Shown: positions 8,567 through 21,575 of the stretch, in pieces | Numbering within the stretch: position 1 is the first letter of the stretch | How the letters are laid out: each line of letters begins with the position of its first letter | Assembly (NCBI GenBank): GCA_964016885.1 | Contig: OZ024743.1 | Coordinates: 215,078,001 to 215,142,000 of the forward strand | Length of the DNA stretch: 64,000 nucleotides | From: Eledone cirrhosa | Taxonomy: Eukaryota | Reading direction: 5' to 3' | Notes under the pieces: model-generated | What the model was told of the DNA's origin: nothing | Databases searched by the model: none | Seen by the model: the letters and a program-made list of their open reading frames with translations, nothing else | Program-made: the position numbers and the translations under genes

Positions 8567-8997
8567 GAAATATAAGAATCAAAGAACTGCTCAAAACATT
8601 ATTGTGCTTACAGCTGTTTCCTCCACACCGAGGTTTGGATTCTTCGGAGCAATTTATTAATGCAATGGACAGTTATATGACCTCCTTTTCAGCCCGAGAG
8701 TCATACCAAATACATATTCAAACATTGATACATATTCAAACATTGTGGGTCAACATTCATTACAGAATTTTGAGTGGCAGTACACACTTCGAGATTACAT
8801 TTATATTAATAGGTACAATCAAAAATCAAAGATATAGGTTAAAGTACAACATGAAGAGAAGTGGTTATATAGTGCAAATGTTATATGTGTGGCACGCATG
8901 TGCATCTTGTTTATATACTGGTAATAAGGTAGTAATACATTACGGCCTACCACTATTTAGGGTGTGTGTAAAATACTTACAACTGCTTAAGGTTTTG
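8567..8997. repeat. Module A copy 1 (hammerhead-bearing, truncated by gap)
   Basis: Near-identical to 16564-17030 and 19837-20303. Confidence 0.92.
8605..8651 (-). ncRNA. Type I hammerhead, C4 core variant (module A copy 1)
   Basis: tgct-CCGAAGA-a-tcca..tgga-g-GAAA-CAGCTG-TA-agca; palindromic stem III ACAGCTGT, GUA site. Confidence 0.7.
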
Positions 8998-9197
8998 NNN
9001 NNNNNNNNNNNNNNNNNNNNNNNNNNNNNNNNNNNNNNNNNNNNNNNNNNNNNNNNNNNNNNNNNNNNNNNNNNNNNNNNNNNNNNNNNNNNNNNNNNNN
9101 NNNNNNNNNNNNNNNNNNNNNNNNNNNNNNNNNNNNNNNNNNNNNNNNNNNNNNNNNNNNNNNNNNNNNNNNNNNNNNNNNNNNNNNNNNNNNNNNN
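8998..9197. other. Assembly gap (200 N)
   Basis: Run of N. Confidence 1.
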
Positions 9198-9945
9198 TGT
9201 ATATATATATATGTGTGTGTGTGTGTGTGTGTGTGTATGTATGTGTGTATCTGGATGTATGTGTATGTATATATATGTGTGTGTGTGTGTATATATATAT
9301 ATATATATATATATATATATGTGTGTGTGTGTATGTGTATATATATGTGTGTGTGTGTGTATGTGTGTATGTATATGTATGTGTGTGTGTATGTATGTGT
9401 GTATATGTATATATATATATATATATATATATATATATATATATATATATATATATATATATATATATATATGTATATGTATGTGTATGTATGTGTGGAT
9501 GAAGGTATGTGTGTGTATATTGCTTCCACCCCCTCACTGACCAGCAGCTGGCTATTGCTAAATCTGACCTTTATAAAATAACCCACACCCCAAATAACTT
9601 CTCATTCACTACCAGAAAGGGACACAGCAGTCAACCTGTTGTTGCTACCTAGATGAAAACTGCTATGAAATCCCACAATGAATTTTATACTTGAATTTTC
9701 AAGTCTCAAATTTTAACTCTTCGTATTATTAATTTTTCTTAATATTAATCAACATTTGAAAAGATGGCTTTTGCAGACCCATCGAAACCGGTCATTTTTT
9801 ATACCCTTTATTATTTCCTTACCTTATAAAATTATGTTTTTTCACAAAAAAGTATTCTGTCTCTTATATATTCCATGTGCCATTACCAACCTCAATTTTC
9901 TCTATAACCTTCGTTTTGTGTAGAAAATTACACTTTTCATATATA
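9198..9945 (+). repeat. 5' pLTR of Neptune element (left edge at gap)
   Basis: Matches 14086-14808, including the TG/TA microsatellite part and the unique 9495-9945 segment. Confidence 0.93.
9750..9800 (+). ncRNA. Type I hammerhead, U3/A8 compensatory core variant
   Basis: TTGAAAA-GATGG..CCATC-GAAA-CCGG-TC; palindromic stem III ACCGGT, GUC site; stem I weak. Confidence 0.65.
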
Positions 9946-9967
9946 CTAACCTACGCAAATCCGGAAA

Positions 9968-11233
9968 ATGGCACTGGAACAAGACAACACCACTTCAAAC
10001 TCCAATATCAATGAGGAAATCCTGAAAATCCTAAAAGAGATAAATGGAAAACTCACCATTCTGACAAAAAAACAGGATATACCCCAAACCACCACACCGA
10101 CTGACAACCAAATTTATTTAAACGTTCAAAACGTATGCAACTCCATCGAAAAACTTATGAATACCAACACAGAACAAACGACATTGCTCCATATCAAAAA
10201 CCAAATGGGACACCTCTGGAAAAAACATCTAAAAACCAGAAAATTCACTTTCTGGAATATGATAAAAAACCTCAACAAAGCTGGAATTTACCAAAAATGG
10301 ATTAACTCAACACCGATAGTTTTACCACGTAAATTCCAAATAAAGCATATTACAAACGAACCTGAACCAGAAAGAAAACTCCGTGAACAAATGTCACTCA
10401 ACAGGATAAACATGGAAATAGAACTCCTAAAATTAAGGGCCACCTCAAACGAGCAAGAGTATAAGGATACTGATAAAAATATGGAGGAAGAATGCACTAA
10501 AAAGGCCGAGGGAACAACCCTACAAAATTTAATCAAATCGTGGAAACAGGACTGCGAGAATGCAGAAACTATTTCCCTTAAACGGTGGGAAAAATCCGAA
10601 AACTGGTTCCTCAAATATGAAGAAGACTTTAAAAGGACGCACCAAACAGGTAACCCCTTTATAAAGCATTTGAACATAACAAGAACTACAACAGACACAT
10701 TTACACCACCAAACCCAACACACACTAACCACAGGCACATCCCCCACCAACACAAACCAAATACGGCCAACTACACCAAAAGAAACACACCCAACCACCA
10801 CAACACAGGTTTCCGTAGAAATGCCCCCTACATAAACCAACGACGAAATAACATAGATCCAACTCACAACACACACACCACATTCCTCAGAAGAAATCCA
10901 CCCAGGCCACTTGAAATCACAACAGAACTTACCCACAACCACACCAGACATCACCCTCAATCCAACAAAAGACAACCCCCCAGCCTCAACACTCTGTACC
11001 ACAGAAATAACGCACCCAGACCACATGAACCAACAACAGAACCCTTGCTCATCAACAACCACAACACATACCACCCCCACCATCACATTCACCCTCATGA
11101 AACAACAAGCTACAGACCCACACGCAACAGACCAACAAAATATAATCACACACAAAACTACATTCCTTTTTTAGGGAAAAGCCTGAAATACCAGGATACT
11201 CGATGGCCCCCCCTCAGGAGAAACCAAAAATAA
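9968..11233 (+). CDS. PLE ORF1, 421 aa: helical/coiled-coil-like N-terminal ~230 aa plus H/N/T/P/R-rich low-complexity tail
   Basis: Uninterrupted ATG ORF starting ~22 nt after the pLTR, with the same A/C-rich strand bias as ORF2; heptad-like segments (EEILKILKEINGKL, LNRINMEIELLKLRA). Confidence 0.8.
   Translation: MALEQDNTTSNSNINEEILKILKEINGKLTILTKKQDIPQTTTPTDNQIYLNVQNVCNSIEKLMNTNTEQTTLLHIKNQMGHLWKKHLKTRKFTFWNMIKNLNKAGIYQKWINSTPIVLPRKFQIKHITNEPEPERKLREQMSLNRINMEIELLKLRATSNEQEYKDTDKNMEEECTKKAEGTTLQNLIKSWKQDCENAETISLKRWEKSENWFLKYEEDFKRTHQTGNPFIKHLNITRTTTDTFTPPNPTHTNHRHIPHQHKPNTANYTKRNTPNHHNTGFRRNAPYINQRRNNIDPTHNTHTTFLRRNPPRPLEITTELTHNHTRHHPQSNKRQPPSLNTLYHRNNAPRPHEPTTEPLLINNHNTYHPHHHIHPHETTSYRPTRNRPTKYNHTQNYIPFLGKSLKYQDTRWPPLRRNQK
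11167..11220 (+). promoter_or_regulatory. Candidate -1 programmed ribosomal frameshift signal (T TTT TTA GGG)
   Basis: Heptamer 11167-11173 is correctly phased in ORF1 (cct ttt tta). The -1 frame is open from 11146 into ORF2. Downstream cctg/cagg and cctga/tcagg pairings are possible. Confidence 0.7.
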
Positions 11234-19836: not shown

Positions 19837-20303
19837 GAAATATAAGAATCAAAGAACTGCTCAAAACATTATTGTGCTTACAGCTGTTTCCTCCACACCG
19901 AGGTTTGGATTCTTCGGAGCAATTTATTAATGCATGGACAGTTATATGACCTCCTTTTCAGCCGAGAGTCATACCAAATACATATTCAAACATTGATACA
20001 TATTCAAACATTGTGGGTCAACATTCATTACAGAATTTAGAGTGGCAGTACACACTTCGAGATTACATTTATATTAATAGGTACAATCAAAAATCAAAGA
20101 TATAGGTTAAAGTACAACATGAAGATAAGTGGTTATATAGTGCAAATGTTATATGTGTGGCACGCATGTGCGTCTTGTTTATATACTGGTAATAAGGTAG
20201 TAATACATTACTGCCTACCACTATTTAGGGTGTTTGTAAAATACTTACAACTGCTTAAGGTTTTGTATTTCATAACCATAAATAGTATAACTAATACTAT
20301 ATT
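19837..20303. repeat. Module A copy 3 (hammerhead 19875-19921 minus)
   Basis: Near-identical to 16564-17030. Confidence 0.92.
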
Positions 20304-20870
20304 CATATATATATTCATATATATATATATATATTCATATATATATATATATATATATATATATTCATATATATATTCATATATATATATATATATATAT
20401 TCATATATATATATATATATATTCATATATATATATATATATATATATTCATATATATATATATATATATTCATATATATATATATATATATTCATATAT
20501 ATATATATATATATATATATATATATATATATATATATATTCATATATATATATGTATTCATATATACATATATATATATATATATATATATATATATTC
20601 ATATATATATATATATATATATATATATATATATATATTCATATATATATATATATATATATATATATATATATATATATATATATATATATATATATAT
20701 ATATATATTCATATATATATATTCATATATATATATATTCATATATATATATATATATATATATATATATATTTATATATATATTCATATATATATATAT
20801 TCATATATATATATATATATTCATATATATATATATTAATATATATATATATATATATATATATATATAT

Positions 20871-21184
20871 GGAAAGTTATATTTAAACTAGTAAATATTT
20901 ATAACTGATATAAAAGCACTCAACAAGTATTTGGAGTATATTTACGATATAAAATAAATGGAAACTATATTTATAAAACCATATTTATTTCACTATATAT
21001 ATTTCAGGGATATCATATTAACAATATGTTATGCCTTCCTCAGACAAAATACAATATATAAAACTGTCTATATTGTATTTTGTCTGAGGAAGGCATAACA
21101 TATTGTTAATATGATATCCCTGAAATATATATAGTGAAGTAAATATGGTTTTATAAACATAGTTTCCATTTATTTAATATCGTA
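20871..21184. repeat. Module B copy 3 (palindrome, two hammerheads; small deletion near start)
   Basis: Matches 15122-15449 but lacks ttgttgggttacaa. Confidence 0.9.
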
Positions 21185-21323
21185 TATATATATATATATA
21201 TTAATATATATATATGAATATATATATATATATATATATATATGAATATATATATATATGAATATATATATATATATATATATATATATATATATATATG
21301 AATATATATATATATGAATATAT

Positions 21324-21575
21324 GCATATTCTTCGGAGTTTCTGGCTTGTATCTGCCGAAATTACCTCTTGTTTTGATTGCCCTGATGAGTCCTTAATAG
21401 GACGAAACATTGTCGGCTAATAAAAACTTTTGATATATTAAAGGATTATTTGTTTTACTCTCTTAATTTTTCGGCTCTGTTTAACTGCATTGAGCTATAC
21501 CTTTTACTGTCATTTCTATAATACGAAGAGGGTGTTTGACTCAAACACGCTCCAGTATTCTAATCCTTATATTCA
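21324..21575 (+). repeat. Module C copy 3 with intact hammerhead 21378-21420
   Basis: gccCTGATGAgtccttaataggacGAAAcattGTCggc. Confidence 0.92.

Follow-up and report, generated by a model that had tools for sequence, protein, structure and literature searches.

Hammerhead-bearing repeats resembling those described here are known from several systems. Truncated insertions of Penelope-like elements (PLEs) contain paired minimal hammerheads on opposite strands, 100–700 bp apart, with a small palindromic helix III and U3-A8 as a natural variant (PMC4209133). PLE insertions are truncated at the 5' end, lie next to an inverted copy, carry a tail and favour (TA)n (PMC8557442), and they may form head-to-head inverted repeats (PMC3846280); both strands are cut at AT-rich sites and reverse transcription has two start points (PMC11167929). 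Retrozyme families have reported monomers of 51–972 bp (bioRxiv 10.64898/2026.07.22.740005), and the Terminons/Athena elements of bdelloid rotifers form chains of hammerhead-bearing units by repeated addition (PMC6431247). Here, we focused on an array in Eledone cirrhosa in which three hammerhead-bearing modules, A, B and C, occur three times in the same order. The array lies at positions 8567–21575 of a 64,000 nt stretch (GCA_964016885.1, OZ024743.1:215,078,001–215,142,000), which we refer to as the window. An earlier reading of the same sequence made without database searches (the sequence-only reading) had proposed that the array is a triplicated non-coding unit, and the start positions of all nine modules match those it gave:

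8567–8997, minus strand: module A1, interrupted by the gap in the assembly, with a hammerhead-like motif from 8647 to 8609 that has a U4C core
8998–9197, no strand: assembly gap of 200 N
15122–15455, no strand: module B1, a fold-back with arms 96% identical and the left arm ~85 nt longer; motifs from 15308 to 15259 (minus) and from 15349 to 15398 (plus)
15677–15922, plus strand: module C1, with a consensus type I hammerhead at 15736–15767
16564–17030, minus strand: module A2, a piece at 16559–16912 (minus-strand hammerhead from 16644 to 16606) and an inverted piece at 16911–17027, head-to-head at 16911–16912
17424–17757, no strand: module B2, a fold-back
17915–18160, plus strand: module C2, its hammerhead mutated in the core and helix III
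19837–20303, minus strand: module A3
20871–21190, no strand: module B3, a fold-back with a 14 bp deletion
21324–21569, plus strand: module C3, with a consensus type I hammerhead at 21383–21414

The triplicated A-B-C order is thus present in the assembly, and the C-to-C spacings of 2238 and 3409 bp agree with those previously noted. The copies are near-identical with private changes, again as described, at 95–99% identity per module: six substitutions and two indels in A (over the 431 bases covered by A1 and the remainder of A2 and A3), six substitutions and one deletion in B, and 11 substitutions in C, of which three, six and two are private to C1, C2 and C3, respectively. The array does not consist of modules and spacers alone, as had been claimed. 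The 13,009 bp range contains 5,611 bp of a coding Neptune-type element (43%), which lies between A1 and B1, alongside 3,091 bp of modules, 4,107 bp of spacer and the 200 bp gap. Without the Neptune-type element, the unit periods are 2238–3447 bp. The 1171 bp difference between the two C-to-C spacings is almost entirely due to the spacers (+1035, +174 and −24 bp, with the 14 bp deletion in B3), as the sequence-only reading held. Its view of the spacers as elastic does not apply, as there is no homology between the C1-A2 spacer and the C2-A3 spacer (z −0.1). A, B and C showed no mutual similarity at word size 7, no coding remnants of PLE proteins were found in them, and every module is flanked by (TA)n.

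Together, our results make it probable that A, B and C are unrelated hammerhead-bearing fragments, likely PLE ends, that landed separately in (TA)n and were then multiplied by two local duplications. This corresponds to one of the two alternatives raised by the sequence-only reading, solo pieces of the pseudo-long terminal repeat (pLTR) type that were later tandemly duplicated, and it fits every test that we ran. Each fragment would have been inserted singly by PLE machinery. In such an insertion, the PLE endonuclease may have cut AT-rich DNA on both strands, each cut end would have primed reverse transcription from one of two nearby start points, and two 5'-truncated copies joined head-to-head would have produced A and B.

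The structure of module B and its relatives is consistent with this mechanism. B folds back on itself, with one arm ~85 nt longer than the other, and two partial copies occur elsewhere in the window:

43194–43331, plus strand: half copy of B, 91–93% identical, with the same 3' point against (TA)n
1761–1837, plus strand: shorter half copy of B, 95% identical, with the same 3' end against (TA)n

The last base of both half copies is that of the short arm of B, and their start points differ. The B family is thereby found at three separate places in the window, with a shared 3' end, varied 5' ends and a (TA)n target. The piece at 1761 may have been shortened by a neighbouring insertion rather than by 5' truncation.

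For module A, relatives were sampled over 16556–17036 in public sequencing runs, which yielded 13 contigs in run X1, 552 in X3 and three in X8; a further run from the same study, X17, consists of raw reads, gave no reads for A2 and provides no test. Although 15 of the 24 public-run rows contain part of A2, none contain half of its words, no RNA run is listed as containing it, and 11 of these 15 rows were not used as evidence. The sampled runs are possibly from related species. Because long AT tracts are seldom bridged by their contigs, these runs are silent on A-B-C arrays elsewhere, and summed contig depth over A2 was not used as a copy number. In two of the three runs with contigs, the start of A (~16559–16578) is linked to position 16911 on opposite strands. 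Therefore, the 16911–17027 piece follows the hammerhead piece in the A family, a diverse repeat family, whereas the copy in the window has this piece reversed and joined head-to-head. The A-family contigs extend past 16912 in all three runs and past 17027 in two, into sequence that is absent from the window; this continuation is not B, and none of the contigs run into B. At position 16696, A1, A2 and A3 are alike and differ from all family contigs covering it, and therefore a single insertion gave rise to the three copies. Another difference from the family contigs, at 16766, is common to A1 and A2.

Both B and A thus have the form of an inverted 5'-truncated copy in head-to-head arrangement with one arm longer (by ~85 nt in B and ~160 nt in A), while C has a single orientation. 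The modules also carry a hammerhead, type I or minimal, near the 3' end, as in truncated PLE insertions; that of C lies ~150 nt from its 3' end, like the one in the Neptune pLTR of this locus. Further likenesses to truncated PLE insertions with inverted pLTRs are the (TA)n flanks, the paired motifs on opposite strands and, in A and B, the small palindromic helix III and the bulge before helix II. In contrast to those insertions, no parent ORF (open reading frame) was found for the modules, their arm differences are longer, and three families were piled up and then duplicated together with satellite. On these sequence features, A, B and C are likely members of the truncated PLE insertions; we call their membership likely rather than shown because no parent encoding a reverse transcriptase (RT) was found. 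For C, a PLE end and a solo retrozyme monomer are about equally plausible origins.

Next, we examined the claim that each unit has four hammerheads, two per strand. Hammerhead-like motifs do occur at the places described: a descriptor scan recovered 11 of the 12 sites, compared to 0–2 (mean 0.5) across 20 block shuffles of the window, with a descriptor that had been broadened to admit U4C after A had been inspected. As working ribozymes, most of these motifs fall short. At the gathering score, no Rfam family matched anywhere in the 64 kb window. With a relaxed threshold in the 14300–21600 region, the hammerhead family RF00163 (gathering score 34) matched C1 and C3 at 31.7 bits (E 7e-5) and C2 at 20.4 bits (E 0.38), and no hammerhead was listed for A2, A3 or the B copies. 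Matches to microRNA families at the relaxed threshold reflect the B hairpin and AT repeats and were dismissed. In C2, the core reads CUGGUGA and helix III is broken. Four of the six private substitutions of C2 (at 17977–18000) fall within the 32-nt hammerhead, either by chance or by conversion from a paralogue. A1, A2 and A3 all have U4C, and their motifs fold no better than shuffles. The family contigs list no variant at this position, so U4C may be the normal state of the A family. U4C is described as reducing activity in vitro, yet being tolerated in a viroid (PMC3088659). For the B motifs, consensus cores are seen in every one of the three units; these cores are nevertheless paired within the fold-back, a predicted hairpin of −187 kcal/mol in which the unpaired probability of the cores is at most 0.001 on both strands. 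Because B is a fold-back, the two hammerheads in it are mirror images of a single motif, which largely accounts for the symmetry of two per strand. Consensus cores predicted to be free to fold are found at two of the 12 sites, C1 and C3, both on the plus strand; at most, these two would be predicted to cleave a passing plus-strand transcript. Folding C as a circle gave z −1.3 to −2.4 in three folds, which is not telling.

These observations bear on the other alternative raised by the sequence-only reading, a composite ambisense retrozyme-like unit mobilised by a PLE RT, considered here as a two-polarity retrozyme amplified via circular RNA. The tandem order is kept three times, hammerhead-like motifs occur on both strands in every unit, and C resembles the canonical type I motif of animal retrozymes that lack long terminal repeats (PMC7229834). 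Taken alone, C is also monomer-like in its length of 246 bp and its low GC content. The A-B-C unit is different: at 2.2–3.4 kb it is several-fold larger than the reported monomers, it is made up of unrelated parts of mixed polarity, and its two internal junctions are non-homologous, whereas copies from one circle would repeat one junction, as we infer from the rolling-circle model. As to a complete type I hammerhead in at least two consecutive units, C falls short through the mutated C2, the B motifs have their consensus cores locked in a hairpin, and A carries U4C; most motifs are mutated or sequestered. In addition, the A-family contigs continue into sequence other than B. We therefore consider such a composite retrozyme very unlikely, and the least probable of the explanations for this array. 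Should a unit of this kind prove to be dispersed and to be expressed in circular form, retrozymes would come to include multi-kilobase units composed of several families.

To investigate how the units multiplied, the spacers and the surrounding satellite were coded by their interruptions and aligned pairwise (55 pairs, with 40 shuffles each). The tracts involved are:

3770–8566, no strand: satellite tract s1, (AT)n interrupted mainly by TC; most of the C1-A2 spacer derives from the final ~330 bp of this tract (z 9.5)
15923–16563, no strand: junction-1 spacer, matching the tract before A1 from ~16088; breakpoint likely at 15923–16090
18161–19836, no strand: junction-2 spacer, its first ~1.2 kb matching the tract after C3 (z 9.7) and its last ~450 bp weakly matching the tract before A1; breakpoint likely at ~19350–19420
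21570–23050, no strand: satellite tract s2, to which the initial portion of the C2-A3 spacer is homologous

The spacer between the Neptune-type element and B1 aligned with that between A2 and B2 at z 5.3, and the three B-C spacers aligned with one another at z 2.8–4.0. The B-C spacers also aligned with a remote portion of the upstream tract (z 3.9–6.4), which shows that shared GA-type interruptions alone can score, and hence the lower z values need caution. A sliding comparison placed junction 1 within ~165 bp after C1 and junction 2 ~1.2 kb after C2. As the C1-A2 spacer mostly matches the tract before A1 and the C2-A3 spacer mostly that following C3, both breakpoints fall within satellite, where unequal exchange would leave them. 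Two unlike junctions within satellite are what unequal exchange or slippage would be expected to leave, whereas a concatemer from one circle would repeat a single junction. For the modules, A and B group units 1 and 2 as sisters with copy 3 as the outlier. In the proposed history, an older duplication of A-B-C with ~1.2 kb of downstream satellite would have given rise to unit 3, and a younger one, of some upstream satellite with A-B-C, to units 1 and 2. Both duplications would have occurred by unequal exchange in the surrounding satellite, and the Neptune-type element would have entered unit 1 afterwards.

The flanks of the modules also bear on whether a PLE RT acting in trans copied A-B-C with satellite from a read-through transcript and reinserted it nearby, in a transduction primed at the outward end of A or C. 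The 3' ends of A and C point outward from the unit, a young Neptune-type element with open ORFs lies inside the locus, and unrelated sequence has been reported to be captured between solo pLTRs (PMC3846280). Yet the first satellite interruption after C is kept in all three C copies, that before A is kept in all three A copies, and unit 2 has ~1.2 kb of satellite beyond C. This places the breakpoints beyond the element ends. Exact tandem reinsertion would moreover need extra assumptions, and unequal exchange needs none, which leaves transduction as highly improbable. Mobilisation in trans by a PLE RT of a multi-kilobase composite consisting of three foreign ends and AT satellite, possibly via hammerhead-cut or circular RNA, is in general very unlikely here. 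If it did take place, PLEs would be a motor of satellite-block amplification.

Alternatively, one of the three units may be spurious, with the assembler having placed both haplotypes, or contig ends that overlap, one after the other. A1 ends at the assembly gap and has two single-base insertions of a type produced by long-read errors, A1/A2 and B1/B2 are ~99% identical and so within the allelic range, and the spacers are long low-complexity tracts. The region from B1 to C3, however, is a single gap-free stretch, and the private substitutions in all three C copies exceed what two alleles can supply. Three distinct C sequences within a gap-free stretch mean that at least two copies are likely real, and we regard such a false duplication as unlikely.

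Several observations weigh against separate PLE-type insertions followed by two duplications. The arm-length differences in B and A exceed the classic 30–40 nt tail. A search of the window, of 44 retrieved loci and of metagenome contigs, by two exact-motif scans that returned nothing for either A or C, found no RT-encoding parent of A, B or C. Coding similarity between the modules and PLE proteins is absent, and the PLE that lies immediately downstream of the half copy at 43194 lacks B sequence at its 3' end. No second member of the C family occurs in the window, and this family was unsampled in the public runs. The placement of the junction 2 breakpoint depends on the tract before A1, whose match is weak (14.1, median 9.7). 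Finally, the genealogy of C disagrees with that of A and B: C2 is the outlier, with its six private changes, four of them in the hammerhead, and gene conversion or uneven mutation is needed to reconcile the two.

We found no paper describing such a composite array in open-licence full text. The chain of hammerhead-bearing units recalls the Terminons (PMC6431247), but their many ORFs, telomeric repeats beside the hammerhead and attachment to chromosome ends were not seen in the array. We predict that the array, as a unit, lacks a function. On the present reading the A-B-C locus itself matters little: it documents insertions of PLE type into (TA)n and unequal exchange within a satellite. It does call for caution, since both fold-back insertions and local duplications raise the apparent number of hammerheads and can pass for two-polarity retrozymes.

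The Neptune-type element in the A-B spacer of unit 1 comprises:

9198–14808, plus strand: Neptune-type PLE, present in unit 1 only, with direct pLTRs at 9198–9945 and 14085–14808
9968–11233, plus strand: Neptune ORF1
11146–13479, plus strand: Neptune RT/endonuclease ORF

Its pLTRs are identical at 721 of 724 aligned bases and carry hammerheads at 9756–9793 and 14619–14656 with a U3-A8 covariation core. The pLTR also contains long (TG)n/(TA)n tracts. The RT ORF has a Pfam RVT_1 match and no Pfam GIY-YIG match, while many of its full-length homologues have PF01541. Across 37 sequences, C644, C649, C652, Y684, C688, C691, Y695, G697, H710 and H727 are invariant. The element thus shows features of the Neptune clade: an RT with a C-terminal GIY-YIG-type region, a Cys-rich CX2-5CxxC linker, direct pLTRs with a U3-A8 hammerhead and a microsatellite target. 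Relatives were found at 44 loci in genome contigs and at none in viral contigs. These loci (L001–L044), each a stretch of a public bacterial genome record, contain animal-type PLE sequences that likely reflect host contamination. The near-identical pLTRs, the open ORFs and the restriction to unit 1 suggest that the element is likely the last arrival in the locus.

ORF1 of this element overlaps the RT ORF in the −1 frame and the overlap contains an in-frame U-UUU-UUA heptamer (11167–11173), which makes it a candidate for programmed −1 frameshifting. Among 13 of the 44 related loci that were examined, three have a −1 overlap with an upstream ORF, two of these with an in-frame heptamer (L001 near 1202 and L008 near 2713), and the others are broken, truncated or otherwise arranged. 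Hairpins downstream of the candidate slippery sites folded no better than shuffles in all three cases. A figure legend in PMC8557442 mentions an ORF1 frameshift, which may or may not concern Neptune, and our literature search found no paper on an ORF1/RT frameshift in Neptune.

Further fold-backs or inverted pairs bounded by (TA)n occur in the window at 3247–3621, 23448–25213, 39013–39613 and 48973–51454, together with several PLE ORF remnants. A fourth fold-back family, D (3247–3765, 48836–49270 and 51156–51468), has a one-sided extension of ~144 nt, and its relatives are the inverted repeats around a PLE endonuclease remnant; no hammerhead in it passed the descriptors. Two 5'-truncated PLEs have inverted terminal repeats: the one at 23408–25207 has kept its GIY-YIG ORF, and in that at 39013–39613 a minimal hammerhead can be recognised by eye on the minus strand, near 39170. 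Four PLE ORFs or remnants, all on the minus strand (40717–42857, 44915–47272, 50190–50660 and 52194–53162), are 34–48% identical to one another and distant from Neptune. They had no Pfam match, and we presume that they may belong to the Hydra clade. The broken minus-strand ORFs at 29800–34430 read like a putative Helitron Rep/helicase. Fragments at 1–1760 (minus strand) and 57100–63200 resemble non-LTR retrotransposons, as labelled by eye, and 58063–58766 and 60736–61433 form an inverted pair that is 91% identical.

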